DNA from: Lachnospiraceae bacterium | GTDB lineage: Bacteria; Bacillota; Clostridia; Lachnospirales; Lachnospiraceae | Reading direction: 5' to 3' | DNA length: 64,000 nt | Assembly: GCA_009779895.1 (NCBI GenBank) | Contig: WRBB01000016.1 | Coordinates: 2,363-66,362 of the forward strand | In this document: positions 1 through 44,289 of the stretch, in pieces | How positions within the stretch are numbered: position 1 is the first letter of the stretch | Layout of the letters: every line of letters starts with the position of its first letter | Made by a program: the position numbers and the translations under genes | Notes under the pieces: model-generated | Databases searched by the model: none | The model's input: the letters and a program-made list of their open reading frames with translations, nothing else | Told to the model about the DNA's origin: nothing

Positions 1-3000
1 CCAAACTCCTTTCTGTTTTCATAGCCACATAATCGCCGGGTACTACACCCATATCCCTTAGTCGCTTCGCAATTACATTAGCTTTACAGTTCAACACGCC
101 ATAAGTCATACTTGTACCTTCAAAGGTCATCGCTATGTTATCCGGTGCTTTGGCCACCTGCTCTTCAAACAACTGTACCACTGTCTGATGACTGGGATAC
201 TCCATTGCCGTATCATTAAATGCTCCAAAAATCAAGCCACGCTCTATTTCCGTAAGCATGTCAATTTCTTTTAGCTTCATTTCCGGCTTTTCAACCAAAT
301 CGCTCAATAATTCTATATAATGTGCAAGCATTAATTCTACTGTCTCTTGCTGAAACAGCATTGTACAGTATTCTAAAGCTATTTCAAAACTTTCATCCTG
401 CTCCTCCATAATAAAAGTTAAATCAAATTTCGCTTCTGCATTTTTTGCTTCCACAAACTCTATTGATAAACCCTCTATGGCATCCCTAAAATCCGGATCC
501 TCATTATTTTGCAAAATTAACATCACATCAAACAAAGGATTCCTAGACATATCACGTCTGACCGCAACATTTTCAATCAATTCCTCAATGGGATACTCTT
601 GATTTTCATAGGCTTTTAAGCTTGTCGTTTTTATCTCTTCCAACAAACGCACAAAAGACTTCTCTTTTTCCGGATATCCCCGCATGGCTAATGTTCCAAC
701 AAACATACCAAACATATTCTCTGTATCCCGGTGCGTTCTTCCAGAAATCGGACTCCCAATAACCACATCCTCTTGATTGGCATATGCCCCAAGTAATGTC
801 ATCGCGGAAGCCAGAAACACCATATACTCTGTTGTTCCTGTCTTTCTCGCCAATTCTTTAATCTTACTGCCCAATTCTTTACCCGTTTCTATCACAATCG
901 TCGCTCCGGCAAAACTTTGGATCGCCGGTCTTGCATAATCTATGGGTAATTCAAGCACCGGAATCTCATCACTAAATGCATCGATCCAGTAATCTTTTTG
1001 GCTGCTCAAATCTCTGCTTCGCATCCACTCACTATAATCTTTGTACTGTACACGTAACTCAGGCAAACATGCACCGGCAGCCAAAGCCAATAGCTCTTCT
1101 ATAAACAATGATATGGACATCCCATCAGAAATAATATGATGCATATCTATTAAAAGCATATGACTGTCTTCTTCTTTTTTCACAATATCTACTCGCATTA
1201 ATGGAGCTTGACTCAAATCAAAGGGACAAATAAAATCTCTTATCATTTGTTCCATACACAAGCCTTTATCCTGCTCCTTATAACCAATATTCATTTTTAC
1301 ATGAGAATGAATCTGTTGAACCGGCTCACCATCCACAAGATGGAAACTTGTTCGAAATGCTTCATGTCTCTGCACCAACTTTTGGAAAACGCTTTCTAGG
1401 TCTTCAACCTTTAGTTTTCCTTGCACTTTTAATGGAATGGGCAAGTTGTAGCTTACCCCTACATCACTAATTTGCTCTATTAAATACAAACGCTTTTGTG
1501 AAGATGACATCGGATAATATGTTTTTACTTCTGCTTGTGGAATTGGCTCATAGGTTCCCTCGACATCTTCTAATGCCAAACTGATCCCTTCCACGGTCAG
1601 ACCTTGAAAAATATCTTTGATCCCCAGCCGTACTCCCGTAACCTGCTCAATATGATTCACTAACAGAGTCGCTTTTAAAGAATTTCCGCCCAACTCAAAG
1701 AAGCTTTCTTTGATTCCAACTTGTTCAATCCCAAACATTTCCTCAAAGATAGCGGCAATCGCTTTTTCCGTTTCATTACTTGGTGCAACATATGCCTTTA
1801 TTGCTGTAATTGCAATCTTCGGAAGCGCACGCTTATTTTGTTTTCCACTGCTCGTTACCGGTATTTCATCAATCTGCATAAAATACGCCGGTACCATATA
1901 TTCCGGTAAATGGTTTCGTAATTGTGCCTTAATCTGTTCAAAGTCAAGAGAAATCTCACTTTGCACATAAGCACATAGTGTTTTATCACCTGTCTCATTT
2001 TCTTGCACTATCGCTACCGCATCTAAAACAGCTTCAATGTTTCTAAGTGCGCTTTCTATCTCTCCCAGCTCAATCCGAAAACCTCTGATTTTTACTTGCT
2101 CATCTATTCTACCAAGATATTCAATATTTCCATCCGCTTGCCATCTGGCCGCATCGCCGGTTCGATATAACTTTCCGTCTCCAAAAGGATTCTCAATAAA
2201 TTTTTCATTGGTTAAAGCTTCACTATTTAAATAACCCTTTGTTACCCCAACACCGGCAATACATAACTCACCAATCATACCGATGCCACATATCGCAATA
2301 CCATTTACAATATATGCTTGATCATTACCAACCGGAGTTCCAATTACTACTTTTTCATTCGCTCTAAGATGATGATGCGTGACCTCTATACTGGTTTCTG
2401 TTGGTCCATAAGTATTAATCAAGTCTACTTCCGAATTATAATCGGAAAACATCTCATAAAAATCATTCACACCATCAACCGTAATCGCTTCACCACCGGT
2501 AAACACATAGCGCAACGTTTTGAGCATGTGAGCATACTTTGCTTTATTGCTCTTAACCGCGATCATCATGGTTTTTAACATAGATGGTACTACTTGCATC
2601 TCTGTTATCTGATGCGCCCCAATCTCTTCGCACATTCTAAACGGATCCTTTTCATCCTCCGGGGACAATAAATAACCCTTGGCTCCTGTCAGGCTCCATC
2701 TGAAAATCTCAACGATTGACGCATCAAACGTATAAGCAGTCTTTTGTAAAACAGTACTACTTGCATCGATAAAATAATTCTCTTGCAAATACGTAATCAA
2801 GTTTACTGTGCCTTTATGTTGGCACATAACCCCTTTGGGTTCTCCTGTTGTTCCGGATGTATAGATTAAATAAAAATCATCTTCCGGCGTATTTATGATC
2901 GGTAAATTTGATTCATCGCCGCCATAAATTGATTCATCCGCTAAATGCATAATCGGGATATTAAAATCCTCCATGCTCACATCTGCTTGATATAACAATA

Positions 3001-6000
3001 TCGCCTTGGCATCACAGTCCTTTAACATGTATTGCAGTCGCTCTTTTGGACATGCAACATCAATAGGTACATATGCTGCACCTGATTTGATGATTCCATA
3101 AATACCAATCACAAGCTCAAAACTCCGCTCTGTTTTCATGGCCACATAATCACCCGGCTTGATTCCCATATCTCTTAATCGTCTTGCAATTACATTAGCT
3201 TTCGCATTTAATACACCATAAGTCATGCTTTGATTTTCGAACATCATCGCAACATGATCCGGTGCTTTTTGCACTTGATCTTCAAACAATTCTATCACTG
3301 TTTTATCTTTGGGATAAACCATTGCCGTTTTATTAAAGTCTGTTAAAATCTGATTTTTTTCGGCCTCTAAAACAATTTCTATTTCACCTATTTTCGCTTC
3401 CGAATACGCATCTATCTGTTCCAACAAATAAATAAATCTTTCAGCCATTCGACTGATTGTTTCTTCCCGGAATAAGTCCATACAATATTCAAAGGCAGCT
3501 TCATAACCACCATCCATTTCTCTTAATGAAAGTGACAAATCGAATTTTGAGATTGCATCCATGTGCTCACCTTCTATTGAGTCAAATTTAACTCCATGGA
3601 TTGTTTTGCTTTCTTGCTCATTGTTTTCATCTAAACTAAACATCACATCAAACAATGGATTGCGTGACATATCCCGTGGTAAATCCAAGACTTCTACCAA
3701 TTCTTCAAATGGATATTCCTGATTCTCATAAGCCCCTAAACTAAAGGCTTTTACCTCTTCCAGAAATTGAGACAAGGTCTTATCTTTATTCGGTTTCCCT
3801 CTCATCACCAAAGTATTCACAAATATACCAAGCATATTTTCCGTATCTCGGTGTGTCCTTCCGGAAATCGGTGTTCCTACTACCACATCCTCTTGATTGC
3901 CATATTTTCCTAGCATCATCATAAACAAGGACAATAATACCATATACTCTGTTGTGTTGGTTTTCGCACTTAAACGCAGCACGCAATCACGCAATCTTTT
4001 ATCTAATTTTCGAACAAGGGTTGCCCCTTTAAAACTTTGAAGCGTTGGTCTGGCATAATCAATCGGCAATGCGAGTACCGGAATTTCATCTTCAAATTGA
4101 CCCAACCAATAAGCCTTTTGAGCACTCAAATCCCGCGACAACATCCATTGGGTATAATCTTTATATTGTACACGTAATGCGGGCAGTTCTGCGCCTGCAT
4201 ACAAAGCTAAAAACTCAGACATCAAAACAACAGTGGAAATGCCATCTGAAATAATGTGATGCATATCTAAAAGCAACACATGTCCTTCTTCTTCCACTTT
4301 TACTATTTCAGCTCTAATTAACGGTGCCTGACTCAAATCAAATGGACGAATAAATTCTTCCATGACTTGTTTTTTATCTATTACTTCCCCTTGCTCTTTG
4401 TAAACAACATCTGACACAACATTTTTATGGATGATTTGAACCGCTTCTCCATCAATCAGTTCAAAACTTGTCCGAAACGCTTCATGTCTTTCAATTAATT
4501 GATGAAACATAGCTTCTGCCTTGTCAACATCTAACTTACCTTCCATTTTCAAAGCAATCGGCATATTATAAACAATACTTGCATCTTCTAATTGATCCAA
4601 CACAAACAATCTTTTTTGCGCAGATGACATTGGATAGTATTCTTTTTCTTCTGCCTGTGGAATCGGCTCATAAACGCCACTTACATCTTCAAGTGCCAAA
4701 CAAATACCCGCAACTGTAACCCCTTGAAAGATATCTTTAATCCCTAATCTCAATCCTGTCTCTTGCTCAATTCGATTTACAAGTAATGTGGCTTTTAATG
4801 AATTTCCGCCCAACTCAAAGAAACTATCATTGATTCCCACTTGCTCTATATCAAACATTTCCTGGAAAATATGCACCATCGTTTTTTCTGTTTCTGTGAT
4901 TGGTGCTACGTATGCCTGCGTACTTGATATCTCAATCTTTGGCAAAGCCTTTTTATTCAGCTTTCCACTACTCGTCACCGGAATTTCTTCCACACGCATG
5001 AAATACGCAGGTACCATATATTCCGGTAAATGATTACGCAATTCTAACTTTATCTGCTCAAAATCAAGCTCATTTTCACTTTGCACATAAGCACATAATG
5101 TTTTATCTCCACTTTCATTGGTCACAACTATCACCACTGCATCTAAAACAGTTGGAATACTTCTAAGCGCACTTTCTATCTCCCCTAACTCAATTCGAAA
5201 GCCCCTGATTTTGACTTGCTCATCCACTCTACCAAGATATTCCATATTGCCATCTACTAACCATCTGGCTCCATCACCGGTTCGATATAATTTCCCATCT
5301 CCAAAAGGATTCACAATAAACTTTTCATTGGTTAAAGCTTCGCTATTTAAATAACCCTTTGTTACCCCAACACCGGCAATACATAATTCACCAATCATAT
5401 CAATGCCGCATAGCGTAGTGCCATTTAAAATATAGGCTTGGTAATTACCAATCGGTTTCCCGATTAATACCTTTTCTTCATTTGCTTTCAAATGATAATG
5501 AGCTGCTTCAACACTGGTTTCTGTTGGACCATAAGTATTAATAAGGGCTATAGCTTTACTATACTGACCAAATACTTTATAAAAATCATTCACAACATCT
5601 ACTGTAATCGCTTCACCACCGGTAAACACATAACGCAATGTTTTGAGCATATGGCCATATTTCTTTTCATCGTTTTTAACAGCAATCATCATAACCTTTA
5701 ACATAGATGGTACTACCTGCATCTCTGTTACATGATGTACCCCAATCTCTTCACACATTCTAAACGGATCTTTTTCATCACCCGGAGATAACAAATGACC
5801 CCTAGCCCCTGTCAGACTCCATCTAAAAATCTCAACAATAGATGCATCAAACGTATAGGCAGTCTTTTGTAAAACAATACTGCTTTTATCAATGGGATAG
5901 TTCTTTTGCAAATACGCAATCAAGTTTACGGTGCCTTTATGCCGGCACATAACCCCTTTGGGTTCTCCTGTTGTTCCAGATGTATAAATTAAATAAAAAT

Positions 6001-6450
6001 CATCTTCCGGTGTATTCACTATAGGTAAATTTGACTCTTCACCCTCATATATTGACTGATCTGCCAGATTTATAACCGGAATACTAACGTCCTCTCTGCT
6101 CACATCTGCTTGATATAGCAATATTGCCTTAGCATCACAATCCTCCAACATGTATGCAAGTCGCTCTTTCGGGCATGTAACATCAATGGGAACATAGGCT
6201 GCTCCAGACTTGATTATTCCATAAATACCAATCACAAGCTCAAAACTACGCTCTGTTTTCATGGCTACATAATCACCCGGTTTTATCCCCATATCTCTTA
6301 ATCGCTTCGCCAAAACATTGGCTTTTGCATTTAATGCACCATAAGTCATGCTCGTATCTTCAAACGTCATCGCAATATCGTTCGTTGCCTTTGCGACTTG
6401 TTCTTCAAATAAATGAACCACCGTCTTTTCTTTTGGATAAACCATTTTGG
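1..6450 (-). repeat. In-register direct repeats of a 3,120-bp NRPS module unit (two full periods plus the start of a third)
   Basis: Equivalent codons lie exactly 3,120 nt apart: HHIISDG at 1121-1141 vs 4241-4261, and PCP Ser codons at 1679-1681 vs 4799-4801. The A-domain N-terminal string ctctgttttcatggc(c/t)acataatcacccgg recurs near 11, 3131 and 6251. By eye, A-T portions are roughly 80-90 percent identical at DNA level and C2 vs C3 somewhat less (estimate, not computed). The starter C1 (6450-7939) is divergent. Confidence 0.85.
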
Positions 6451-7939
6451 TTTTATTGAAGTCTATTTGTATTTTTTTACGTTCCGCTTTGGTAAGAACT
6501 TCAATCTCATTTATTTTTTGATCCAAAATTCCACTTGCTTCATGAATGATTTCATCTAAAAGCAAATAATAACGTTCCACGAATTGTTGAATAAATGTTT
6601 CATCAAAAACACCTTTGCGGTAATTGATTCCCCCCTCAATTTTGTCACCGGCTTTGATTAATTCAAAATCCATTGCTGCTCTGCTATAACCATTGTCAAT
6701 TTCTTGAAAATCAATTTCCAGACCATCAAAAACAAGCTTGCTTTCCGCATGTTCCTTATAATTAAAAAGCAATTGATAAATAGGGCTTTCTTCTTTTTTC
6801 AGATAAGCATCTTTCTTTTCATAACTTTCTAAAAAATTCTCATAGGAGGCTTTTATAAAATCTGAAAATGTCAAATTGTCATCTATCACCGACCTGATTG
6901 GGAGAATATCAGCAAAACAGCCAACCATTGGTTGTAACTCTGCCAAATCCCGCCCTAGGGTAATTACACCGGCGGTAATATCCTTTTGCATGGAATATTT
7001 ATAAATCAACAGTTTTAAAACCGCAAAGTAAATGCTAAAAACCGTTACCTGCTCTCGCTGCGCCACATCTTGAATTTTCTTGGCCACCTGAGCACTAATG
7101 TGAATTTCTTCTCGCAAAGCTAATGCATCAAAATGTGTTAAATCTTGCATCTCTTTTAAAATATCCAATGAAAAGTCAGCACCCTCTAATTGGTCTACCC
7201 AATATTTTTTAGCTAACTTCTCTTCATAGATATCTTTTTTGGCATTACGTTCCCACCAAGCAAAATCTTTAAATTGAATCGATAATTCCTGTTGCCTATT
7301 TTCAATATTTCCAACCTTAGCAAAACAATATTGAAGTGCTTCTCCCAAGGCAATGTTAATGCTCATACCATCGCCTACAAGATGATGCATCACAAGCATA
7401 ACAGTCCAATCATTTGGTGCTGTACAAATAAGGGATGCTCTCACAAGGGTATCTTTCTCTAAGTCAAAAGGTTTTCCTGCCACTTCATCCATCATTTCTG
7501 CAACAACAGCTTTTCTATCACGGTTCAGATGGGAATAGTCATGCATTTCCGGTTCAAACACCATGTCCTCATCCATTTCTGCATAAATCAGACCATTCTC
7601 TTCCTTGAAATGCATATGTAGAATTTCATGCCGATGAAACATCTCCTGAAGCCCCTCTACAAACCGTTGCATTTGAGCCGCTTCAAGGATTCGATGGATA
7701 CCTCTGATACGAGCAATCGAAATCATATTATACATGGTTGCATCCAAACTGATATGATTGGCAACCCATATTTTCTCTTGTGCAAAAGTCAATGGATAAC
7801 GATTATTATCAACTTGAGCAGGCTTGATTTCTACCGCCCCGCCTTGGGTTTGTCTCAGTCGTTTTTTTCTTAGTAATTTTTCCAACAACGCCTGCTTTTC
7901 CGGCGATAACTGACTGAGTTTATCGTTTATTGTGCTCAT
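1..7939 (-). CDS. Non-ribosomal peptide synthetase; N-terminus complete, C-terminus runs off the left window edge; visible domain order C-A-T-C-A-T-C-A(partial)
   Basis: Missing from the ORF track only because its stop lies beyond position 1. My translation from ATG (complement of 7937-7939, GAGG about 9 nt upstream) gives MSTINDKLSQLSPEKQALLEKLLRKKRLRQ... The N-terminal ~700 codons (7939 to ~5820) were read codon by codon without a stop. Downstream motifs all share one frame, and the track shows no stop-terminated in-frame minus-strand fragment in this span, so the frame looks open to position 1 (>2,646 codons). Motifs: C1 MHHLVGDG 7367-7390; A1 FDASIVEIF ~5827-5851 and YTSGTTGEPKG 5954-5986; T1 FFELGGNSLKA (Ser codon 4799-4801); C2 HHIISDG 4241-4261; A2 YTSGTTGEPKG ~2832-2866; T2 GGNSLKA (Ser codon 1679-1681); C3 HHIISDG 1121-1141; start of A3 (LFEEQVAKAPDNIAMTFEGTSMTYGVLN) ~1-200. 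Confidence 0.92.
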   Translation of the reverse strand, partial: MSTINDKLSQLSPEKQALLEKLLRKKRLRQTQGGAVEIKPAQVDNNRYPLTFAQEKIWVANHISLDATMYNMISIARIRGIHRILEAAQMQRFVEGLQEMFHRHEILHMHFKEENGLIYAEMDEDMVFEPEMHDYSHLNRDRKAVVAEMMDEVAGKPFDLEKDTLVRASLICTAPNDWTVMLVMHHLVGDGMSINIALGEALQYCFAKVGNIENRQQELSIQFKDFAWWERNAKKDIYEEKLAKKYWVDQLEGADFSLDILKEMQDLTHFDALALREEIHISAQVAKKIQDVAQREQVTVFSIYFAVLKLLIYKYSMQKDITAGVITLGRDLAELQPMVGCFADILPIRSVIDDNLTFSDFIKASYENFLESYEKKDAYLKKEESPIYQLLFNYKEHAESKLVFDGLEIDFQEIDNGYSRAAMDFELIKAGDKIEGGINYRKGVFDETFIQQFVERYYLLLDEIIHEASGILDQKINEIEVLTKAERKKIQIDFNKTKMVYPKEKTVVHLFEEQVAKATNDIAMTFEDTSMTYGALNAKANVLAKRLRDMGIKPGDYVAMKTERSFELVIGIYGIIKSGAAYVPIDVTCPKERLAYMLEDCDAKAILLYQADVSREDVSIPVINLADQSIYEGEESNLPIVNTPEDDFYLIYTSGTTGEPKGVMCRHKGTVNLIAYLQKNYPIDKSSIVLQKTAYTFDASIVEIFRWSLTGARGHLLSPGDEKDPFRMCEEIGVHHVTEMQVVPSMLKVMMIAVKNDEKKYGHMLKTLRYVFTGGEAITVDVVNDFYKVFGQYSKAIALINTYGPTETSVEAAHYHLKANEEKVLIGKPIGNYQAYILNGTTLCGIDMIGELCIAGVGVTKGYLNSEALTNEKFIVNPFGDGKLYRTGDGARWLVDGNMEYLGRVDEQVKIRGFRIELGEIESALRSIPTVLDAVVIVVTNESGDKTLCAYVQSENELDFEQIKLELRNHLPEYMVPAYFMRVEEIPVTSSGKLNKKALPKIEISSTQAYVAPITETEKTMVHIFQEMFDIEQVGINDSFFELGGNSLKATLLVNRIEQETGLRLGIKDIFQGVTVAGICLALEDVSGVYEPIPQAEEKEYYPMSSAQKRLFVLDQLEDASIVYNMPIALKMEGKLDVDKAEAMFHQLIERHEAFRTSFELIDGEAVQIIHKNVVSDVVYKEQGEVIDKKQVMEEFIRPFDLSQAPLIRAEIVKVEEEGHVLLLDMHHIISDGISTVVLMSEFLALYAGAELPALRVQYKDYTQWMLSRDLSAQKAYWLGQFEDEIPVLALPIDYARPTLQSFKGATLVRKLDKRLRDCVLRLSAKTNTTEYMVLLSLFMMMLGKYGNQEDVVVGTPISGRTHRDTENMLGIFVNTLVMRGKPNKDKTLSQFLEEVKAFSLGAYENQEYPFEELVEVLDLPRDMSRNPLFDVMFSLDENNEQESKTIHGVKFDSIEGEHMDAISKFDLSLSLREMDGGYEAAFEYCMDLFREETISRMAERFIYLLEQIDAYSEAKIGEIEIVLEAEKNQILTDFNKTAMVYPKDKTVIELFEDQVQKAPDHVAMMFENQSMTYGVLNAKANVIARRLRDMGIKPGDYVAMKTERSFELVIGIYGIIKSGAAYVPIDVACPKERLQYMLKDCDAKAILLYQADVSMEDFNIPIMHLADESIYGGDESNLPIINTPEDDFYLIYTSGTTGEPKGVMCQHKGTVNLITYLQENYFIDASSTVLQKTAYTFDASIVEIFRWSLTGAKGYLLSPEDEKDPFRMCEEIGAHQITEMQVVPSMLKTMMIAVKSNKAKYAHMLKTLRYVFTGGEAITVDGVNDFYEMFSDYNSEVDLINTYGPTETSIEVTHHHLRANEKVVIGTPVGNDQAYIVNGIAICGIGMIGELCIAGVGVTKGYLNSEALTNEKFIENPFGDGKLYRTGDAARWQADGNIEYLGRIDEQVKIRGFRIELGEIESALRNIEAVLDAVAIVQENETGDKTLCAYVQSEISLDFEQIKAQLRNHLPEYMVPAYFMQIDEIPVTSSGKQNKRALPKIAITAIKAYVAPSNETEKAIAAIFEEMFGIEQVGIKESFFELGGNSLKATLLVNHIEQVTGVRLGIKDIFQGLTVEGISLALEDVEGTYEPIPQAEVKTYYPMSSSQKRLYLIEQISDVGVSYNLPIPLKVQGKLKVEDLESVFQKLVQRHEAFRTSFHLVDGEPVQQIHSHVKMNIGYKEQDKGLCMEQMIRDFICPFDLSQAPLMRVDIVKKEEDSHMLLIDMHHIISDGMSISLFIEELLALAAGACLPELRVQYKDYSEWMRSRDLSSQKDYWIDAFSDEIPVLELPIDYARPAIQSFAGATIVIETGKELGSKIKELARKTGTTEYMVFLASAMTLLGAYANQEDVVIGSPISGRTHRDTENMFGMFVGTLAMRGYPEKEKSFVRLLEEIKTTSLKAYENQEYPIEELIENVAVRRDMSRNPLFDVMLILQNNEDPDFRDAIEGLSIEFVEAKNAEAKFDLTFIMEEQDESFEIALEYCTMLFQQETVELMLAHYIELLSDLVEKPEMKLKEIDMLTEIERGLIFGAFNDTAMEYPSHQTVVQLFEEQVAKAPDNIAMTFEGTSMTYGVLNCKANVIAKRLRDMGVVPGDYVAMKTERSL

Positions 7940-8003
7940 CTTTTTCTACCTCTTTCATTCTGATTTTTCTAAAACAAATGATGATAAGATTTATTCTGTT
8001 TCC

Positions 8004-11000
8004 CTATGAAGTCAGATTAGAATCTAGCATCTCTGCCATTTCCTCATCTGACATATCCTCCAATTGCGCTAACAATACATCCAATTCCTCCTCAGAGGTA
8101 TCTTTTATTAAATCTTCCATTGTATTTAATTCCAATAAGGTATCTAATTGATCTGCAATTTTTTCAACCTTTTCCTGTAATGGTTGATTATTTAAAAGAT
8201 CAATGACGTTAAGAGAAGCACCTAATTTTAATTCAATTTTATTTCTTAACTCCGTCGCAACCATAGAATCAAGCCCTAATTCCGTCAGCGAGTTTTCCAT
8301 TGTAATTTCTTCTTGCTTCATATGTAAAGCTCTGGCAACAATCTGAATCACTTGCTCTTCTAACATCTGCATTCTATCTTCTTTAGAAAGACTGCTATAA
8401 GCTGACTGAAATTCTTTTAATATTTCTTCATCAGACCTCAGCTCATCATCTCCATCTAAGCTATTTAACATCACTTCTTCCAAATAAGGAATTTTACTTT
8501 TTGCATTCGATTCTTTTAACGTGAGCCAGTCTGCTTCTAAAACCGCTGAATAAGGAATATTTTGATGAATGAGCCGCTCCAATGTTTGCATTCCCTTATC
8601 CGGCGTTATGGGTTCTAATCCTTTTTGCCGATAGACATTGATTAAATTTAACTCTTTAATCATCCCTACCGCCCAAGGTCCCCAAGCAATACTCAAAGCC
8701 GCAAGCCCTTTCTGTCTTCTATATGTAGCCAAACCATCTAAAAATGCATTGGCTGCCGTATAGTTCGCTTGTCCGGCTGTTGTAATTAAAGCAGCAATCG
8801 AAGAAAACATCACAAAAAAGTCCAACCGTTGCTTTTCAAAGCATTTATGCAAAACCCAATGTGAGAAAACCTTTGTTTGATACACTTCATCAAAGACCTC
8901 TTTTGACATTTGAGCAATTAACATATCTTTGACAACTCCGACTGCACTAATAACGCCTCTGACACTTTTTAGACTTTCGGCATGTTCAACAAAATACGCC
9001 TTAACAGCATGTTCATCTAAGAAATCAATAGCATCTACTATCACCGTCGCCCCTTTTTCTTCGAGACCTTGCACAAATTTGATTCGCGCTTGGATTTTAT
9101 GCGCAAGATCCTCATTTTGCCACGCTTCCCTTTCGGGCAAATTTTCCCGTCCCAGCAAAATCAACTTCTTTGCGCCTTTTTCCACCAACCAATTGGCAAC
9201 CAATTGACCCAATGCACCAAAAGCTCCCGTAACCATATAACTGGCATGTTCATCCATCTGAACAGGCAACGGTTTTGTTAAATTACTTGTATTTCGAACC
9301 CGCGCAACATAACGCAGACCATTACGAAAAGCAATTTGATCCTCATCATCACCTTTTAAAACCTGCGTAGCCAATTGATTCAAACTATCCGCTATGGCAT
9401 CCGGATCCAAATCAACAATGCCACCCCATGAGGCAATATATTCCTGATTGGCAAGCAGTCTTGCTGTTCCCCAAATCGCATTTTGCATCACTTCCCGTTC
9501 TTTTTGTGAATCAATGGCTTGCGCTCCTTTTGTTACAATCCAAAGTTTCGGTGCTTTTTCAACGGCCACAGCCGCCTTTACTGCGCTCAAAACCGTATAA
9601 ACACCGGCATCCCCCGATTGTAAAACATTTTGAGTTGTAATTTCATGGTTCTTTGGCAAATCAATATTCCAAAAATGCATAATACCTTTTATTGGCATTG
9701 TTTCTGTTACAGTCTGATACAATGTAACAAAATCTTCATCGTTGTTGAAACCAATCATCGCCTTTTTGGCTTCCATTTCAATGGATAATGCTTCACCTAA
9801 TTCAACACAAAAATAAGTCTCACCCTGCTGGGTTAAGATTTTTTCATATTGTGCACTAACACCACTTTTATCTCTAAGAATCAACCAACTACCCGGTTGT
9901 GATTCTTCTTTGATCTCTTCAACATTCTCCTTTTCAAGCCATTCTAAATCGTACAACCAACTGTCCATTATTTTCAATGGCACTTTTTGAGAAACACCCT
10001 CCAACACCTGTACACGCAAACGTTTAATTTCCGCAATCAAATGACCATTGTCATCATACAAATAAATATCACAATCTGTATAAATGTCAGTCTTTTTTGT
10101 TTGACAACAATAGGACCACATTTTTTCTTTCAAGTCCGCATAAAGTAAAAATTTATCCACACTAACAGGTAGCCGCATCTCAATTTCGGTATCATCGTTA
10201 TCATCCATACCAAATTCCAAGGCAACAATCCCTTGGAAACAAACATCCAAAATACCCGGATATATTTCATATTTTTCCGGCATCTCCACCTGCGGCATCT
10301 TTACTTTAGAGATTGCTTCCGTTTCGCCAACCCAGATTTTATCAATAGCCGCAAATGTATTGGTATATTGAAATCCAGAACCATGGAATTTTTTATAGAT
10401 CTTTTCTCCGGTGGATTCCCGCATATTATTTAATGTTTTTTCTTTAATCCCTCTTAAATCAATGCTTTTTACGGCAGCAAAATTCTGTATTTGTTTCAAT
10501 GCCCCTGTGGAGACCAATTCATAATGATCTACATTAGAAACATTATAGAGCGTAAAGGTAGCCCTTTCTTCATCTAACGTCATTTGCAGTTTTGTTGGTT
10601 TATTCGGTTGAATAAAAACCGCCTTTTTAAATGCAATATCTTCCAGAATATAAAATCCTTCGCCATAATATTCATTTGCCAATTGCAAAGCCATTTCCAT
10701 GTATCCGGCAGCCGGAAACAGTGGATTGCCACCAATACAGTGATCGTCTAAAAATGGAATCAGCTCCTTTTTAAGCTCAACCTCCCAAGTCGGACGTGCT
10801 GTTGCCAATCTTTTTCCTAATAAAATACGATCATATACACCCAACCGCCTAATTTTACTTGACGAAGATTCTGACCAATACACCTCTCTTTGCCATGCAT
10901 AATGGGGCAACTTCACAAAGTTGCCGATTTCCGGATAAATCCTTGTCCACTCTTTAAAAACACCCGTCGCATATAAACCGGCTAAAGCAAAATAAAACGT

Positions 11001-13538
11001 AGCCGACTCCGTTTGTTTACGATTCAGCGAACTGATAAAAGTCCCATTCACATTTTTTTCCGCACACATTTCTTTTAAGTAATAAGATAAGGTCGGATGG
11101 GGACCCACTTCTAAAAATTTTGTATAACCCGCATCTAAAATAGCCATTGCCGCATCTGCAAAATAAACCGCATGACGAACATTGTTCCACAAATAACTCG
11201 CGTCCATTTGCTCGGTAACACATTTTCCTATCGTCGTTGAATACAGTGTTGTTGCAGGCATATGAAATGTAACATCTGCAATTCCCGCCATAAATTCATC
11301 TTTTATTTCTTCCATGTAATGACTATGGAAAGGTACCGTTACATCCAAAAATTTACTAAAAACACCTTGCTCTGTTGCCGCTTCTCCCAATTTTACCAGC
11401 TCTTCCTCTTCACCGGCAAGGGTAACTCCCGTTGCACTATTAATGGCAACAATATTAATACCTTCATAATCAGCAATCAATTCCTCCACTGCTTCTTTTG
11501 ACATGCTAACGGCCATCATTTTCCCTTTGCCGGTCAACCTTTGTTGCAGACTACTTCTGTAATATATCACTCTTACCGCATCTTCAAAGCACAAAACACC
11601 CGCACAATAAAACGCAGCCACTTCACCTGCACTATGGCCGACAATGACGTCCGCCTGAATCCCTTTTGACTCCCATAACTGAATTAACCCGAACTGAATC
11701 GCAAAGTTCGCCGGTTGCGCCAGTTTGGTCTGACTCATTTCAGATGTTTCCTCTTCTGCAGACATGGCTTCTAGTAATGACCATCCGGCATATTTCAAAA
11801 ATTCTTTGTCGCATTTTTGAATCGCTTCCATGAAAACAGGCTCTGTTTTCATCAGTTCTTGCCCCATTCCCCACCATTGCGGTCCCATACCGGTGAAAAC
11901 AAAAACCAATTCCTGGTCCTCTTCTTTATTTTGACGTCCTTGTGCAACACCTAACGTTTGAATATCTTGAATATAATCATTTAAATTTTCTTTCAGCTCC
12001 TCTATATTTTTTGCTACAACCCCCAAACGAAATGGATGTTGATCGCGTCTAAATGCCATGCTATAACCTAAATCATATATATTTTCTATGCTTTTTTGCT
12101 CCAAAAAATCATAATATCTTTTAGCCATTGCCTTTAATCCCGTTTCTGATCTTGCAGAAATCGGGAATATACGCAATGATTCATCCGTCGTAGAGGATAG
12201 CAACGGAATTTCAGGTGCTTCCGCTAAAATCGCATGGGCATTTGTTCCACCAAAACCAAAGCTATTAACTGCTGCAACAGCCATACCTTTATGCTTTGGA
12301 TAGTCCATCAACTCTAATGGCACTTTTAAATTTAAAGCTTCTAAATCAATCTTGGGATTTATTGTTTTCAAATGAAGATGCGGCGGTATTTTCTTTTCTT
12401 TCAAAATCAAGGATGTTTTAATGACACCTGCTACACCCGCCACACTTTCCGTATGTCCAATATTCGTCTTAACAGAAGCAATGACACAGGGCTCTTTTTT
12501 ATTTCTACCCTTGCCATAAGATTCACCAAGTGCATTTGCTTCAATTGGATCTCCCACCGGGGTTCCCGTTCCATGCATCTCTATATACTGAACATCCGTT
12601 AATTTAATTCCCGCCTGTTTTACAGCTTTTTCAATTGCTACTTTTTGCGATTCTCCATTCGGAACCGTAATCCCATTTGTTTGTCCGTCTTGATTCACCG
12701 CACTTCCTAAAATAACCGAATAGATTTGATCTTTATCTGCAATTGCATCTTTTAAAGGTTTCAAAACAACAACAGCAGCACCCTCGCCCCTTACATATCC
12801 ATTTGCCGACTCATCCAATGTCTTGCATTTACCATCCGGTGACAAGAAACCACCACGAGATTCCGCGATTGTATATTGAGGCGCAAAATTCAACAAAATA
12901 CCTCCGGCAATTGCCATACTGCATTCTTTATTTCTAATGTTTTGACATGCCGTATGAATCGCAACCAACGATCCGGAACAAGCGGTATCAATCGCAAGAC
13001 TCGGCCCTACAAAGTCATACACATAAGACAATCTATTGGCAACCAAGGTCATCATACTACCTGTTGCTGAATGCAAGTCAATCTGATCTAAATGATCCAA
13101 ATCAAACTGAACATGTTGATAATCCAGTGTAAACGCACCAATAAATACCCCTGTATCTGACCCTACATATTTCTTTGTGATCATTCCGGCATCTTCCATC
13201 GCTTCCCAACTAACTTCCATTAAAATTCTTTGCTGCGGATCAATAAAGGTTGCTTCTCTTGGGGTAATACCAAAAAAACCTGGATCAAATTGATCCATGC
13301 CGTCTATAAATCCACCTTTTTGACTAACGGTTTTCCCGCTGAATGCGCGATCTGCGTGATAAAAAGTATGTCTGTCCCATCTGTTTTTTGGAACGTCTAC
13401 AATCGCATCCTTACCATTTTTTAACAGGTCCCAAAACTGATGCACATCATTAGAGTTTCCCGGAAAGCGACAACCAATCCCAACAATCGCAATCGAATCT
13501 TCTTTATACTTTTTACCATTCAATACAACTTTTTTCAT
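8004..13538 (-). CDS. Type I polyketide synthase, single module KS-AT-DH-KR-ACP (no ER, MT or TE recognised)
   Basis: 1,844-aa ORF. KS: IAIVGIGCRFPG, DTACSGS (Cys codon 12978-12980), EMHGTGT, NIGHTES. AT: GHSAGE (Ser codon 11631-11633) and VPFHSH (HAFH-like). DH: HCIGGNPLFP = HxxxGxxxxP (His codon 10740-10742). KR: VTGAFGALGQLV Rossmann (~9190-9236) and YTAANAFLD. ACP: LGLDSM (Ser codon 8265-8267). An acidic ~45-aa tail follows the ACP. The ATG overlaps the accA stop (ATGA, 13535-13538), with GGAGG about 9 nt upstream. Confidence 0.93.
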   Translation of the reverse strand: MKKVVLNGKKYKEDSIAIVGIGCRFPGNSNDVHQFWDLLKNGKDAIVDVPKNRWDRHTFYHADRAFSGKTVSQKGGFIDGMDQFDPGFFGITPREATFIDPQQRILMEVSWEAMEDAGMITKKYVGSDTGVFIGAFTLDYQHVQFDLDHLDQIDLHSATGSMMTLVANRLSYVYDFVGPSLAIDTACSGSLVAIHTACQNIRNKECSMAIAGGILLNFAPQYTIAESRGGFLSPDGKCKTLDESANGYVRGEGAAVVVLKPLKDAIADKDQIYSVILGSAVNQDGQTNGITVPNGESQKVAIEKAVKQAGIKLTDVQYIEMHGTGTPVGDPIEANALGESYGKGRNKKEPCVIASVKTNIGHTESVAGVAGVIKTSLILKEKKIPPHLHLKTINPKIDLEALNLKVPLELMDYPKHKGMAVAAVNSFGFGGTNAHAILAEAPEIPLLSSTTDESLRIFPISARSETGLKAMAKRYYDFLEQKSIENIYDLGYSMAFRRDQHPFRLGVVAKNIEELKENLNDYIQDIQTLGVAQGRQNKEEDQELVFVFTGMGPQWWGMGQELMKTEPVFMEAIQKCDKEFLKYAGWSLLEAMSAEEETSEMSQTKLAQPANFAIQFGLIQLWESKGIQADVIVGHSAGEVAAFYCAGVLCFEDAVRVIYYRSSLQQRLTGKGKMMAVSMSKEAVEELIADYEGINIVAINSATGVTLAGEEEELVKLGEAATEQGVFSKFLDVTVPFHSHYMEEIKDEFMAGIADVTFHMPATTLYSTTIGKCVTEQMDASYLWNNVRHAVYFADAAMAILDAGYTKFLEVGPHPTLSYYLKEMCAEKNVNGTFISSLNRKQTESATFYFALAGLYATGVFKEWTRIYPEIGNFVKLPHYAWQREVYWSESSSSKIRRLGVYDRILLGKRLATARPTWEVELKKELIPFLDDHCIGGNPLFPAAGYMEMALQLANEYYGEGFYILEDIAFKKAVFIQPNKPTKLQMTLDEERATFTLYNVSNVDHYELVSTGALKQIQNFAAVKSIDLRGIKEKTLNNMRESTGEKIYKKFHGSGFQYTNTFAAIDKIWVGETEAISKVKMPQVEMPEKYEIYPGILDVCFQGIVALEFGMDDNDDTEIEMRLPVSVDKFLLYADLKEKMWSYCCQTKKTDIYTDCDIYLYDDNGHLIAEIKRLRVQVLEGVSQKVPLKIMDSWLYDLEWLEKENVEEIKEESQPGSWLILRDKSGVSAQYEKILTQQGETYFCVELGEALSIEMEAKKAMIGFNNDEDFVTLYQTVTETMPIKGIMHFWNIDLPKNHEITTQNVLQSGDAGVYTVLSAVKAAVAVEKAPKLWIVTKGAQAIDSQKEREVMQNAIWGTARLLANQEYIASWGGIVDLDPDAIADSLNQLATQVLKGDDEDQIAFRNGLRYVARVRNTSNLTKPLPVQMDEHASYMVTGAFGALGQLVANWLVEKGAKKLILLGRENLPEREAWQNEDLAHKIQARIKFVQGLEEKGATVIVDAIDFLDEHAVKAYFVEHAESLKSVRGVISAVGVVKDMLIAQMSKEVFDEVYQTKVFSHWVLHKCFEKQRLDFFVMFSSIAALITTAGQANYTAANAFLDGLATYRRQKGLAALSIAWGPWAVGMIKELNLINVYRQKGLEPITPDKGMQTLERLIHQNIPYSAVLEADWLTLKESNAKSKIPYLEEVMLNSLDGDDELRSDEEILKEFQSAYSSLSKEDRMQMLEEQVIQIVARALHMKQEEITMENSLTELGLDSMVATELRNKIELKLGASLNVIDLLNNQPLQEKVEKIADQLDTLLELNTMEDLIKDTSEEELDVLLAQLEDMSDEEMAEMLDSNLTS

Positions 13539-14482
13539 TGCTCATAAACCTCCGGAATTGCCATCCGCCTAAATTTTTCATACCGCTGCTGCAACAAACT
13601 ATCTTTTTTTTCTTTTATCAATTTCGCAAGCTCTTCATACAATCTTTCTTTTAATTGTGCCATAACAAAATCCACCTGTGTATGGATGCCACCAACCGGT
13701 TCTTCAATTAAGATATCCACCACACCCAATTGATACAAATCTTGTGCCGTCAATTTCATTAGCTTTGCCGCTTCTTTCGCACGGCTAGCATCTTTCCATA
13801 AAATACTTGCAAACCCTTCCGGCGACAGCACCGAATATATACTATGCTCAAGCATCATGATTCTATCGGCTATACCAATTGCCAATGCGCCACCGCTTCC
13901 GCCCTCTCCAACAACCACCGCAATAATCGGAACCGTTAATTCCATAAACGTCTTTAAGCAATCTGCAATCGCTTCTGCTTGTCCGCGCTCTTCCGCACCA
14001 ATTCCGGGATAAGCTCCCGGCGTATCAATAAGTGTAATAATCGGTCTGCCAAATTTCTCCGCTTGCTTGGCCAAACGCAATGCCTTTCGATAACCCTCCG
14101 GATGTGGCATACCAAAGTTACGTTTCATATTCTCTTCCAATGTTTTACCTTTGACTTGCCCAATAATTGTTACGGGTATTCCTTTTAACAAACCAACACC
14201 ACCGATCATGGACTGGTCATCTCCATAGTACCTATCACCATGCATCTCCATAAAACCATCAAACAACATATCAATATAGCATTTTGCATTTGGGCGGAGA
14301 GGATGGCGCGCCAAATAGACCTTATCTTCCGGTTCTAACTTTTCAAAGGCCTCTTGTTCTGTATTTGCAATCAACTGCATCAATTCCTTTCTTAGGGATT
14401 CATTTTGAATTTCTGATTTATCCAGAGCCAATAATTGTTGTTTTAGCTGCTCAATTAATATCTCCATGCTCTTAAGGCTCAT
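13535..14482 (-). CDS. accA: Acetyl-CoA carboxylase carboxyltransferase alpha subunit
   Basis: 315 aa. ARHPLRPN, GRPIITLIDTPGAYPG and GEGGSGGALA are typical AccA signatures. 4-nt overlap with accD upstream and with the PKS downstream. Confidence 0.93.
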   Translation of the reverse strand: MSLKSMEILIEQLKQQLLALDKSEIQNESLRKELMQLIANTEQEAFEKLEPEDKVYLARHPLRPNAKCYIDMLFDGFMEMHGDRYYGDDQSMIGGVGLLKGIPVTIIGQVKGKTLEENMKRNFGMPHPEGYRKALRLAKQAEKFGRPIITLIDTPGAYPGIGAEERGQAEAIADCLKTFMELTVPIIAVVVGEGGSGGALAIGIADRIMMLEHSIYSVLSPEGFASILWKDASRAKEAAKLMKLTAQDLYQLGVVDILIEEPVGGIHTQVDFVMAQLKERLYEELAKLIKEKKDSLLQQRYEKFRRMAIPEVYEQ

Positions 14483-15360
14483 CGTTTCACCTCAATCTGA
14501 TGTAATTTTGACAATTTTGTTAACACCTCTTTTAAGTCCTCACGCTGCACAACCTGATCCACAAAACCTTTCTCCAACAAAAATTCAGAACGCTGAAATT
14601 CTTTTGGCAAATCTTGATTTATCGTCTGCTTAATAACACGAGGCCCCGCAAAACCAATCAAAGCACTAGGCTCTGCAATAATAATATCACCTAAACTAGC
14701 AAAACTAGCACTAACACCTCCTGTGGTAGGATGTGTCAGCACTGAAATATACAACAATCCTGCTTGGCTATGACGTCCAATTGCCGCACTTGTTTTTGCC
14801 ATTTGCATCAAGGATAAAATTCCTTCTTGCATTCTCGCACCACCTGAAGTGGAAAAAATCAATAACGGTAATTTCCTATGCGTCGCCATTTCAACCAATG
14901 CCGTGATTTTTTCACCCACAACAACACCCATACTTCCCATCAGAAAATAACTATCCATCACAGCAATTGCATATTCATAACCATTCACTTGACCAATGCC
15001 CGTTACAACCGCTTCATTCATTTTATTTCTTTGTCTGTTTTGCACCAGTTTCTCGGAATAACCGGGTATCTCCAATGGATTTTGACTTACTTCAGAAGCA
15101 AACATTTCTTCAAAGGTTCCGGCATCCACAATTTGCTCCAAACGTTCTGTTGCACGCAGCCTTACATGATTATCACAGTGATAACACACAAATAGATTCT
15201 GTTGCAAATCTTCCTTAAGCATACTTTCATGACAATTTGTACATTTTTCATACAATCCGTCCGGAATATTGGCAACGATACGCAATCGCCTTGTTTCTTG
15301 CGTATCAAAAAAACGATTTAATTTTTCTCTTTGTTGCTTAAAAGGATTTCTATTTTTCAC
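14479..15360 (-). CDS. accD: Acetyl-CoA carboxylase carboxyltransferase beta subunit
   Basis: 293 aa. N-terminal zinc ribbon CTNC...CYHC, then the carboxyltransferase core (SGGARMQEG). Overlaps the accC end by 11 nt. Confidence 0.93.
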   Translation of the reverse strand: MKNRNPFKQQREKLNRFFDTQETRRLRIVANIPDGLYEKCTNCHESMLKEDLQQNLFVCYHCDNHVRLRATERLEQIVDAGTFEEMFASEVSQNPLEIPGYSEKLVQNRQRNKMNEAVVTGIGQVNGYEYAIAVMDSYFLMGSMGVVVGEKITALVEMATHRKLPLLIFSTSGGARMQEGILSLMQMAKTSAAIGRHSQAGLLYISVLTHPTTGGVSASFASLGDIIIAEPSALIGFAGPRVIKQTINQDLPKEFQRSEFLLEKGFVDQVVQREDLKEVLTKLSKLHQIEVKR

Positions 15361-16711: not shown

Positions 16712-16713
16712 AC

Positions 16714-17157
16714 TTAATCACCTATTTCGATCAAAGTTTGATTGTAAGATAAAATATCACCATTTTTAACATGAATCGCTTTTATTTCACCCGCAACAGG
16801 AGCTTTTATTTCATTTAACATTTTCATAGCTTCAATAATACAAAGCGTATCTCCCACCCGAACTTGGCTTCCTACTTTGACAAACGGTGGTTCCTCCGGC
16901 CCGCTCGCTTCATAATAAATCCCAACCAACGGTGCATTCACTGATGTAGTATCAGGTGCTTCTGAGACATTTTCAACCTTAACTTCTTCTCTCGACAAAG
17001 AAGAGACCGCCACCGTATGTTCCTTATTCAAAGGAGGTAATACAGAAACGCACTCTTTTTCTAAAACAAGCTCACCCTCTTCGTCTTTTAACTGTAATTT
17101 ACAAAGTGATGAATCCTCTAACACTTTAATTAACTTTTTCACTTTTTCTAAATCCAT
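16714..17157 (-). CDS. accB: Biotin carboxyl carrier protein
   Basis: 147 aa. C-terminal biotinyl domain with EAMKM biotinylation motif (CIIEAMKMLNEI). Stop lies 2 nt before the accC start. Confidence 0.92.
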   Translation of the reverse strand: MDLEKVKKLIKVLEDSSLCKLQLKDEEGELVLEKECVSVLPPLNKEHTVAVSSLSREEVKVENVSEAPDTTSVNAPLVGIYYEASGPEEPPFVKVGSQVRVGDTLCIIEAMKMLNEIKAPVAGEIKAIHVKNGDILSYNQTLIEIGD

Positions 17158-17343
17158 CTTTTACCCCCTACCCCAAAACAGAATTATCCTATTCGGTATT
17201 GTTTAAATATGTTTTTACTTTAATAGAAAATCAAAGCAATTTCTTAATAAAGTAAAAAAAAATTGCCTGTATAGTTCCATGGCAAATCTCTGAGAAAAAG
17301 TACGCCAAACCATTTTGTAATAACTTAAAATACACCCGTGCAA

Positions 17344-17373
17344 AGTATAACAAATTTCCATCTTATCTTGCAA
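17344..17373 (-). promoter_or_regulatory. Candidate sigma-A promoter for the accB-...-PKS-NRPS transcription unit
   Basis: Minus strand reads TTGCAA (17368-17373), an 18-nt spacer, then TATACT (17344-17349). It lies about 185 nt upstream of the accB ATG in a 394-nt gap after alr. Confidence 0.45.
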
Positions 17374-17551
17374 TATATATGTCGTGAACGGCCAATTAAA
17401 CGACGCGAACGACCCAAATGAAGAAATTCTTAATAAATTTTTAACGAAGACAAGGTTGTTGTAACACAAATGAAATAAAAAACAAGACACATTTTATATC
17501 TGCGCCCTGTTTGTGAATTGTCCGATTACTCATAAAGATTTCAAGGACATA

Positions 17552-40980: not shown

Positions 40981-42029
40981 TGACCCAACTCCTGTTTTAA
41001 TGCATTTAACAACTCTGCTTCAGGGACTTTTTTTATAATCTCTCCTTTTTTAAATAACAACCCTTCTCCAACGCCGCCTGCAATGCCGATATCCGCTTCT
41101 CTTGCTTCGCCCGGTCCATTGACCACACAACCCATCACTGCCACCTTAATATCATAAGGCATTTCAGCCACTAAGGTTTCTACTGCATTTGCAAGTTGAA
41201 TCAAGTCAATCTGCGTTCGACCACAAGTAGGACAAGAAACTACCTCCACACCACCTTTTCTAAGACCCAAGGTTTTTAGAATCAAAATCCCCGTCTTAAT
41301 CTCCGCTACAGGGTCGCCTGTCAAAGAAACCCGGATGGTATTACCAATGCCCTCATTTAAAATAATGCCCAACCCCACAGAGGACTTAATATTACCCCCA
41401 TACAATGTACCGGCCTCTGTAATGCCCACATGCAAAGGATAGGGACATCGCGTAGCAATCAGACGGTGTGCCGCCACACACGTCAGCACATCCGAAGATT
41501 TGATGCTCACCGCCATGTTGTCAAACCCAAGCTCTTCCATCAAATGCACTTTATTCATAGCACTTTCTACAATACCCTCTGCTGTCACAGAACCATATTT
41601 TTCTAAAATATGCTTTTCCAAAGAACCACCATTCACCCCAACACGAATGGGCACATCATATTTCTTGGCCGTTTCAATCACAGCTTTGATTTTATCCGCA
41701 GAACCGATATTACCCGGATTGATCCTAATTTTATCCACTCCGTGTTCCATGGCTGCTATAGCCAAACGATAATCAAAATGAATATCTGCCACCAAAGGAA
41801 TGTGGATTTGCTTTTTTACCTCTCGCAAAGCCCTGGCCGCCTCCAACGTAGGAACCGCACAACGAATCACCTGGCAACCCGCTTGCTCTAAAGCATGAAT
41901 CTGGGCAACCGTGGCTTTTACATCCTCCGTTTTGGTATTGGTCATGGATTGAACCACAATCGGATGCGCACCACCTATGTACACATCACCCACCCGAATC
42001 ACTCTTGTTTTATTTCTAGGATTGCCCAT
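40968..42029 (-). CDS. ispG: 4-hydroxy-3-methylbut-2-enyl diphosphate synthase (flavodoxin)
   Basis: Preferred start is ATG 42029 (MGNPRNKTRVIRVGDVYIGG); the track ORF's 34-aa extension overlaps hisC. C-terminal CPTCGR Fe-S motif. Confidence 0.9.
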   Translation of the reverse strand: MGNPRNKTRVIRVGDVYIGGAHPIVVQSMTNTKTEDVKATVAQIHALEQAGCQVIRCAVPTLEAARALREVKKQIHIPLVADIHFDYRLAIAAMEHGVDKIRINPGNIGSADKIKAVIETAKKYDVPIRVGVNGGSLEKHILEKYGSVTAEGIVESAMNKVHLMEELGFDNMAVSIKSSDVLTCVAAHRLIATRCPYPLHVGITEAGTLYGGNIKSSVGLGIILNEGIGNTIRVSLTGDPVAEIKTGILILKTLGLRKGGVEVVSCPTCGRTQIDLIQLANAVETLVAEMPYDIKVAVMGCVVNGPGEAREADIGIAGGVGEGLLFKKGEIIKKVPEAELLNALKQELGHWNK

Positions 42030-43083: not shown

Positions 43084-43084
43084 C

Positions 43085-44278: not shown

Positions 44279-44289
44279 TTCATCACCTC

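Follow-up and report, generated by a model that had tools for sequence, protein, structure and literature searches.

The number of polyketides characterised from anaerobes is small (PMC5686105). Among the systems closest to the locus described here is the single-module polyketide synthase (PKS) CA_C3355 of Clostridium acetobutylicum, which has the domain order KS-AT-DH-KR-ACP and acts iteratively on malonyl-CoA in vitro (PMC5686105). The same order, without a loading module or ER domain and with a malonyl-type AT, is found in the PKSs for heat-stable antifungal factor (HSAF) and other polycyclic tetramate macrolactams (PTMs). The surfactin synthetase SrfAA, a nonribosomal peptide synthetase (NRPS), opens with a condensation (C) domain instead of a loading adenylation-thiolation (A-T) pair and continues with C-A-T modules; lipoinitiated synthetases of this kind use a CoA- or ACP-bound fatty acid. 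Genes for acetyl-CoA carboxylase (ACC) within 10 kb of a KS domain are among the commonest associations of type I PKSs, and the survey reporting this names ACC beta subunits and gives precursor supply and self-resistance as explanations (bioRxiv 10.1101/2020.06.01.128595). ACC beside PKS clusters is thus a pattern already known. We analyzed a 64,000-nt stretch of DNA from a Lachnospiraceae bacterium (contig WRBB01000016.1; the whole stretch is called the window hereafter), at the left end of which a complete accBCDA set is followed by genes for a single-module PKS and a multi-module NRPS. We consider it likely that this region belongs to a functional hybrid PKS-NRPS cluster of a termite-gut Lachnospiraceae, of which it would cover at most the 5' two-thirds.

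The region from position 1 to 17157 holds six minus-strand genes of one direction in the order accB, accC, accD, accA, PKS, NRPS (open reading frame (ORF) listing with translation, Pfam). They are packed as the original prediction had described: accB and accC are separated by a 2-nt gap, accC and accD overlap by 11 nt and accD and accA by 4 nt, the accA stop and the PKS start share a 4-nt ATGA overlap (13535-13538), and the 64 nt between PKS and NRPS are the only long spacing in the gene set. About 17 kb of ORFs run without interruption, and motif mapping found the catalytic motifs of the PKS, NRPS and Acc proteins all intact. The domain content, together with an NRPS ORF that is still open at position 1, bears out the view that a hybrid PKS/NRPS cluster is cut by the left edge. 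Positions 1-23000 are 100% identical to the ENA contig ERZ27257297:k141_1733740, and the same genes were recovered in two Logan assemblies and in one NCBI metagenome-assembled genome (MAG; 'MAG: Lachnospiraceae bacterium'), from which the PKS is deposited as MCL2865268.1 and a partial copy of the NRPS as MCL2865267.1. To the right of accB there are core genes only, namely alr, nnr, cls, rex, an ABC-F protein gene, coaD, rsmD, recG and fakA and, further on, ptsI, polC, ispG, prfA, prmC, rho and a HydABC-type hydrogenase. No recombinase or transposase is present among the annotated ORFs of the window, so that the right border of the cluster is as sharp as had been claimed.

We infer the following pathway; this covers co-transcription, repeated cycling of the PKS, the length of the chain, the identity of the substrate, the chemistry of release and the role of acc in precursor supply. 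One promoter upstream of accB would probably drive accBCDA, PKS and NRPS as a translationally coupled unit, and the four-subunit ACC would provide malonyl-CoA. The stand-alone KS-AT-DH-KR-ACP module, most likely working iteratively, would assemble an ACP-bound, alpha,beta-unsaturated (polyenoyl) acyl chain. An acidic tail of the PKS would then dock on a basic head of the NRPS, and the first condensation domain (C1), a divergent one, would acylate the amino group of residue 1 with this chain. The same polar L-amino acid (code DAVQFGTVEK, no E domain) would then be added by each of at least four near-identical C-A-T modules to give an N-acyl homo-oligopeptide stretch. By analogy with the related contig L028, the part beyond the window may comprise a terminal C domain for chain release, by condensation or hydrolysis, and behind it genes for an ABC exporter and an Sfp-type phosphopantetheinyl transferase (PPTase).

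Pfam assigned no loading module, ER, MT or TE domain to the PKS, and no second PKS gene occurs within the 64-kb window or in the flanks of the family. A Phe at the HAFH position of the AT indicates malonyl specificity by the HAFH/YASH rule, and the KR appears to be B-type-like, a stereochemical type read from the motif VKD, with Asp at the LDD position. The closest relatives of the PKS form a tight family of 1825-1870-aa proteins with 68-78% identity. Outside this family, identity is 40-51% to stand-alone single-module PKSs of ~1.8 kaa, 41-44% over the full length to PTM-type fused PKS-NRPS proteins, including those of Clostridia and Heliobacterium (97-98% coverage for P0163, P0228 and P0195), and 32-34% at comparable coverage to multimodular PKSs. 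As single-module iterative relatives are the closest and CA_C3355 acts iteratively, synthesis of an enoyl or polyenoyl chain by repeated cycles is favoured, and the PKS is most likely used iteratively. It differs from both comparators in its partner. CA_C3355, the clostrienoic acid/clostrienose enzyme of another anaerobic Firmicute, is encoded by an orphan gene without an NRPS partner, whereas the PKS of the cluster is a protein of its own and would pass its chain in trans to an NRPS of several modules. PTM synthases are single polypeptides of ~3100 aa with one C-A-T-TE, and the cluster, with a separate NRPS of at least four modules, lies outside the PTM type.

The PKS might instead act once per product as an ordinary module and provide a short C4 2-enoyl (crotonyl-type) cap, not a polyene. 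KS-AT-DH-KR-ACP is also the composition of a normal reducing module and nothing in the sequence fixes the cycle number; the number of cycles cannot be read from sequence, and a single round would yield the crotonyl-type cap only, which tells against a polyene. Iteration is nevertheless favoured by the closest relatives outside the family, which are stand-alone single-module and PTM-type iterative PKSs, by CA_C3355, which has the same architecture and is iterative (PMC5686105), and by the presumed co-expression of a four-gene ACC, which suggests a high demand for malonyl-CoA. We regard a single round as possible, if unlikely.

How the acyl chain may reach the NRPS is suggested by the ends of the two proteins. 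The NRPS indeed opens with a C domain right after a PKS that terminates in an ACP (Pfam, motifs): C1 covers residues about 40-490, follows a 35-aa head and is itself followed by A1, with no preceding A-T. Like SrfAA, the cluster NRPS therefore has its C domain first and C-A-T modules behind it, and its best local alignment with SrfAA takes in 99% of the query at 36% identity. The acyl donor would presumably be the ACP-bound polyketide, a difference from the fatty acids of lipoinitiated synthetases. The lipo-initiation layout of the original prediction thus stands as far as domain order goes, but the sequence of C1 gave no affiliation with the classical starter-C (Cs) clade. It is 22-27% identical to the other C domains compared, a set comprising N-terminal starter domains and internal ones, with top matches that are equally N-terminal and internal, and SrfAA C1 lies outside its top 25 matches, which speaks against a conventional starter domain. 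Within the family C1 is 61-70% identical, and by its sequence it is a distinct subtype conserved only there; it would be a functional analogue of lipoinitiation. Family members share the acidic tail at the C terminus of the PKS (...LDTLLELNTMEDLIKDTSEEELDVLLAQLEDMSDEEM...), and the basic N-terminal head of the NRPS (MSTINDKLSQLSPEKQALLEKLLRKKRLRQ) is nearly invariant in the three members aligned; the two would fit a docking pair that acts in trans.

The NRPS is longer than the window shows. The ENA gene call comprises 3896 aa and is still open at the contig end, so that the gene has at least four modules. Motif mapping of the 3434-aa NCBI fragment gave C1-A1-T1-C2-A2-T2-C3-A3-T3-C4, and the NRPS motifs include four HHxxxDG, three full sets of A motifs (A3-A10) and three GGNSL. 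The prediction that the chain is extended by at least two further residues is thereby supported, with at least three residues encoded in the window and at least four modules in the ENA contig. The modules form a tandem with a period of 3117-3123 nt (~3120) and 70-86% nucleotide identity; identity between their A-T units is 76-81%, and that between C2, C3 and C4 is 55-70%. C2 and C3 share 41-42% identity with C2/C3 of SrfAA. Pfam reports only C, A and T types; E domains would also score there as Condensation, but the LCL-like sequences of C2-C4 exclude them. Apart from its different C1 subtype, the cluster is unlike surfactin in its near-identical modules of a single code and in a family tail that ends in C instead of TE.

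Stachelhaus codes were taken by alignment to GrsA. For control domains, the known codes of GrsA, SrfAA-A1 and SrfAA-A3 were matched and that of SrfAA-A2 to within one residue, and the positions used are thereby validated. DAVQFGTVEK shares no more than 7 of 10 positions with any of the 428 A domains of the 120 best NRPS homologues, and the code had no match in the searchable literature. The closest recognisable code is DAWQFGLIDK (6/10 positions), which we take to be a Gln code. By whole-domain identity the nearest A domains are 45-50% identical and their codes differ from DAVQFGTVEK, most of them being codes that we presume to be Ser-type. D235 and K517 indicate an alpha-amino acid substrate, and Q278, T322 and E331 suggest a polar side chain. 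With the code shared between modules, a homo-oligomeric stretch of at least 3-4 residues would be expected. In two further family loci, L011 and L016, the first A domain is partly present and carries the same FDASIVEIFRWS motif; positions 235, 236, 239 and 278 are D, A, V and Q as in the window. The closest NRPS homologues (P0002 and P0004, 40-42%) were considered as orthologues and rejected, as they belong to unrelated large lipopeptide clusters without PKS or acc.

The end of the NRPS was sought in other assemblies. The ENA contig provides an NRPS of at least 3896 aa, but all public copies stop inside the gene and none reaches its end. A scan of GTDB genomes with the NRPS tail found nothing, and the tail of this organism was not recovered with an A-T query, the matches of which are all at most 63% identical. 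A search with the A3-T3 region led to P0241 (63% identical), from an Oscillospiraceae MAG of the same termite metagenome. Its contig, L028, encodes A-T-C, a stop, an ABC ATPase, an ABC2 permease and an Sfp-type PPTase; the terminal C domain has an intact HHIISDG and neither a TE nor an R domain follows. We tie L028 to the family because its ABC2 permease is 66% identical to a permease encoded between accA and PKS in another family locus (L006), and it is probably the tail of a family member. Caution comes from the source, another organism, and from its A domain, which carries a different code (DVAQFAAVFK). As the last A domain has this other code, the peptide need not be a pure homopolymer. 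The window itself contains no PPTase and no domain for chain release. Of the elements that the original prediction had placed to the left of the window, a release domain (as a terminal C, not a TE), PPTase and exporter were found in this relative, but no regulator was seen at the L028 tail. Release by a terminal condensation domain is also the mode of rhabdopeptide/xenortide-type NRPSs, which the A-T-C end of L028 resembles, a likeness known from this relative only. Right after the PPTase, L028 carries a lone carA-like gene (5269-6315; carbamoyl-phosphate synthetase small chain/glutamine amidotransferase) with no carB beside it, followed by nrdD/nrdG; it could encode a tailoring amidotransferase or be unrelated.

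The breaks in the assemblies might also mean that what is seen is the remnant of a cluster, decaying or silent, or a product of misassembled NRPS repeats, since every assembly breaks inside the NRPS and the 3' part was never seen for the source organism. All assemblies of the family end in or just after the first A domain, as repeated modules in every member would lead one to expect. Nucleotide differences of 14-30% between the three modules show, however, that they are not collapsed duplicates, and the same sequence was obtained in four independent assemblies. Decay would also be hard to reconcile with the intact motifs along 17 kb of uninterrupted ORFs and with a family kept at 61-78% amino acid identity across three bacterial families, which argues for purifying selection. 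A remnant or artefact therefore appears extremely unlikely.

All four subunits of a heteromeric ACC (AccABCD) are encoded with their signature motifs, and the four proteins look functional; the gene call of accD is identical in L001. We wondered whether acc belongs to the pathway. In three of about 11 loci the acc genes immediately precede the family PKS. In the window it stands downstream of alr. In L006 the set is 62-85% identical to that of the window (accC, accD and accA 81-85%), is flanked by S1/cmk and has the ABC2 permease gene between accA and PKS. In L011/L031 identity is ~52% (accB 35%), accD and accA are fused, and aconitase, isocitrate dehydrogenase (IDH) and citrate carrier genes form the flank. 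No fab genes flank acc in any of the three. The presence of two unrelated acc sets by the same PKS family in three neighbourhoods points to selected co-expression, the simplest purpose of which would be malonyl-CoA supply, and the difference between the sets (~52% identity, one with fused accD-accA) suggests that acc was recruited next to the PKS independently. Eight of about 11 loci have no acc beside the PKS, which weakens the case for a dedicated role; because most loci carry none, acc would be dispensable for the pathway. Its role is most likely accessory, in the supply of malonyl-CoA. In comparison with other type I PKS clusters that adjoin ACC genes, the adjacency is shared, and here the set is complete and its last gene overlaps the PKS start, in line with translational coupling.

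The acc operon may simply be the housekeeping copy of the organism. The PKS and NRPS genes would then have been inserted downstream by chance and be transcribed by read-through, with no dedicated role for acc. The absence of acc from most family loci agrees with this, as do the position of the cluster within a block of core genes and the GC and GC3 (GC at third codon positions) of acc, PKS and NRPS, which match those of the surrounding core genes. Chance insertion does not readily account for the ATGA overlap between accA and PKS or for an acc-PKS adjacency that recurs in three neighbourhoods (alr; S1/cmk; aconitase/IDH), and two unrelated acc sets (52%, fused versus split accDA) would be hard to obtain in this way. 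Clostridial clusters for type II fatty acid synthesis usually carry acc together with fab genes, and none of the three loci has fab genes at its flanks. On balance we hold a mere housekeeping copy to be unlikely.

The andrimid cluster carries a resistant carboxyltransferase subunit; it has only this single subunit and a different synthase type. By analogy, acc could confer self-resistance if the product inhibited ACC or fatty acid synthesis, the ACC of the cluster being insensitive to it. Andrimid is an ACC-inhibiting antibiotic (PMC5216899), and its cluster is counted among those with a validated self-resistance gene in the survey that lists ACC subunits among the commonest putative resistance genes by type I PKS clusters (bioRxiv 10.1101/2020.06.01.128595). 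The predicted enoyl or polyenoyl peptide is loosely like andrimid, and acc recurs independently beside the family PKS. For resistance, however, the targeted subunit is normally enough and all four are not needed, most family members lack acc, and precursor supply is the simpler explanation (bioRxiv 10.1101/2020.06.01.128595). Self-resistance as the role of acc is accordingly very improbable, and malonyl-CoA supply remains our preferred reading.

Whether the six genes form one transcription unit was considered from the signals between them. The promoter-like site before accB (Table 1) is the sole plausible one within the 394-nt alr-accB spacer. The single sigma-A-like promoter of the original prediction is thus present, but such matches occur at chance frequency in this AT-rich region (58 found versus 57.6 expected from shuffles), so it is the position of the site that supports it. 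Internal promoters are also possible, for example at a match at 8010..7981 in the PKS-NRPS spacer, and both points count against a single start site. As to the claimed absence of a hairpin plus T-run between accB and position 1, eleven terminator-like matches were found there on the minus strand, all weak and all within ORFs, and none is intergenic. A single accBCDA-PKS-NRPS operon is consistent with the sequence on the basis of gene packing. The term 'supra-operon' reflects this packing, and acc is not core to the family. In the accB leader, a riboswitch or attenuator was considered and dismissed (no Rfam match; fold z = -1.6, not significant). A 91-aa ORF at 17215..17490 (minus strand) is probably spurious: it has no Pfam match, overlaps the predicted promoter, is uncalled in public annotations and lacks homologues in the related loci.

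The PKS followed by an NRPS with the same C1 domain is a conserved unit, present in ENA, Logan and JGI metagenomes at about 11 separate loci. Among GTDB species representatives only four genomes carry the family, two of Oscillospiraceae and two of Defluviitaleaceae, all of them Emb289P1 MAGs; Emb289 stands for Embiratermes neotenicus, a higher termite that feeds on humus (PMC7024585). The paper on these MAGs makes no mention of polyketides or secondary metabolites (PMC7024585). Every family member with a nameable source is a higher-termite gut MAG, and we found no isolate that carries the family. No characterised relative or product appeared among the protein matches, PDB entries or literature searched: sequence searches of PDB returned generic PKS and NRPS matches only, and nothing describing the family was found in the literature on surveys of biosynthetic gene clusters in termite guts. 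The earlier impression of a gene order unlike that of any characterised pathway was right in this respect, but about ten related loci exist in termite-gut metagenomes and ACC-PKS adjacency as such is not new. The cluster is in effect a new gene-cluster family within a well-known pathway class, and its chemistry is standard thiotemplate chemistry.

The upstream flanks are unrelated between loci and encode a peptidoglycan-binding protein, a MATE pump, M16 peptidases, a nitrilase or GTPases. Large serine recombinases (Resolvase, Recombinase, Zn_ribbon_recom) are encoded directly upstream of the family PKS in L012 (2828-4357) and L013 (1174-2565). This hints that some copies of the cluster lie on or beside mobile elements, and it fits the ~70% identity across three bacterial families. 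A distant relative with a PKS of 49% identity is located on a 202-kb contig of an Oscillospiraceae MAG (L029, 10001-25472). It has the order PKS, NRPS (C-A-T-C), asparagine-synthase-like amidotransferase and an NRPS that opens with an A domain, and adjoins spo0A and alr.

Table 1. Coordinates of the cluster features in the window.
Feature	Coordinates	Strand	Basis and remarks
Sigma-70-like promoter upstream of accB, TTGCAA-18-(TG)TATACT	17344..17373	-	9/12 match, extended -10 TG
accB leader, ~185 nt	17158..17343	-	Weak hairpin (TTGCC...GGCAA), then U9 at about 17262-17290
accB, biotin carboxyl carrier protein, 147 aa	16714..17157	-	Pfam Biotin_lipoyl; AMKM biotinylation motif, residue 110
accC, biotin carboxylase, 453 aa	15350..16711	-	Pfam Biotin_carb_N, CPSase_L_D2, Biotin_carb_C; GGGGKG loop
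accD, carboxyltransferase beta, 293 aa, GTG start	14479..15360	-	Pfam Carboxyl_trans; CxxC-x15-CxxC zinc finger, residue 40
accA, carboxyltransferase alpha, 315 aa	13535..14482	-	Pfam ACCA, E = 2.6e-128
Single-module type I PKS, KS-AT-DH-KR-ACP, 1844 aa	8004..13538	-	Pfam and motifs
KS, aa 14-440	12219..13499	-	Cys-His-His triad: DTACSGS, HGTGT, NIGHTE
AT, aa 545-856, malonyl-type	10971..11906	-	GHSAGE, VPFHS
DH, aa 906-1181	9996..10823	-	HxxxGxxxxP (HCIGGNPLFP), DxxxQ (DVCFQ)
KR catalytic subdomain, aa 1432-1623	8670..9245	-	GAFGALG Rossmann motif, YTAAN catalytic Tyr
ACP, aa 1720-1800	8139..8381	-	LGLDSM serine
Acidic PKS C-terminal tail, putative docking element	8007..8171	-	Conserved in family members
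PKS-NRPS spacer, 64 nt	7940..8003	-	AAGAGG ribosome-binding site, no hairpin
NRPS, first 2646 aa, C1-A1-T1-C2-A2-T2-C3-A3 start	1..7939, open at left	-	ATG at 7939; Pfam, motifs
Basic NRPS N-terminal head, putative docking partner	7835..7939	-	Nearly invariant in three aligned family members
C1, divergent first condensation domain, presumed acyl-ACP acceptor	6470..7822	-	HHLVGDG
A1	4940..6442	-	Code DAVQFGTVEK
T1	4685..4882	-	GGNSL
C2, LCL-like	3335..4657	-	HHIISDG; 41-49% identical to internal C domains including SrfAA C2/C3
A2	1820..3319	-	Code DAVQFGTIEK
T2	1565..1762	-	
C3, LCL-like	215..1537	-	
A3 start	1..199	-	Full domain in L001/P0001, code DAVQFGTVEK

Some features of the window lie outside the cluster. 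The GC skew of the plus strand is strongly negative over positions 1-64000 (about -0.2 to -0.34 in most 2-kb bins) and the genes are almost all on the minus strand, which fits a leading-strand block of a Firmicute with polC (36541-40980); the skew is weaker only at plus-strand genes (22-26 kb, 50-52 kb and 58-64 kb). Between ispG and prfA (42016-45261, minus strand) there are two class I/II aminotransferases and then an LPG_synthase_C protein, which has the C-terminal domain of phosphatidylglycerol lysyltransferase without the membrane flippase part. The HydABC-type (electron-bifurcating-like) [FeFe] hydrogenase at 52869-57960 (minus strand) consists of Fe_hyd_lg_C, Nuo51-like and 2Fe-2S thioredoxin-like proteins with an embedded HATPase_c protein, and a second Fe-hydrogenase-like protein is encoded at 58982-60367 (plus strand). 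A Cobalamin riboswitch aptamer (RF00174, 57.4 bits, E = 1.3e-11) lies near the right edge at 63635-63814 (plus strand), with a PHP-domain ORF upstream of it, and the gene it regulates is beyond the window.

Strictly anaerobic gut Firmicutes seldom have large PKS-NRPS pathways, and the present family is common to MAGs of Lachnospiraceae, Oscillospiraceae and Defluviitaleaceae from higher-termite guts and so crosses bacterial families. The current understanding of thiotemplate biosynthesis is not challenged by it. Specialists would be interested in its restriction to termite guts combined with its spread across families, in tandem modules that share an orphan code, and in the coupled full ACC operon, none of which is surprising in mechanism. 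With an NRPS repetitive enough to defeat short-read assembly, the cluster merits closure by long reads and heterologous expression. As a long shot, the product might be a polyenoyl homo-oligopeptide, built from an amino acid with an unprecedented code, that acts as an andrimid-like inhibitor of ACC or fatty acid synthesis, with the ACCs recruited independently in two lineages being insensitive to it; it would then serve in competition among termite-gut Firmicutes and would have been spread between bacterial families by mobile elements. More generally, the product of this family may mediate competition or signalling in the hindgut of termites.

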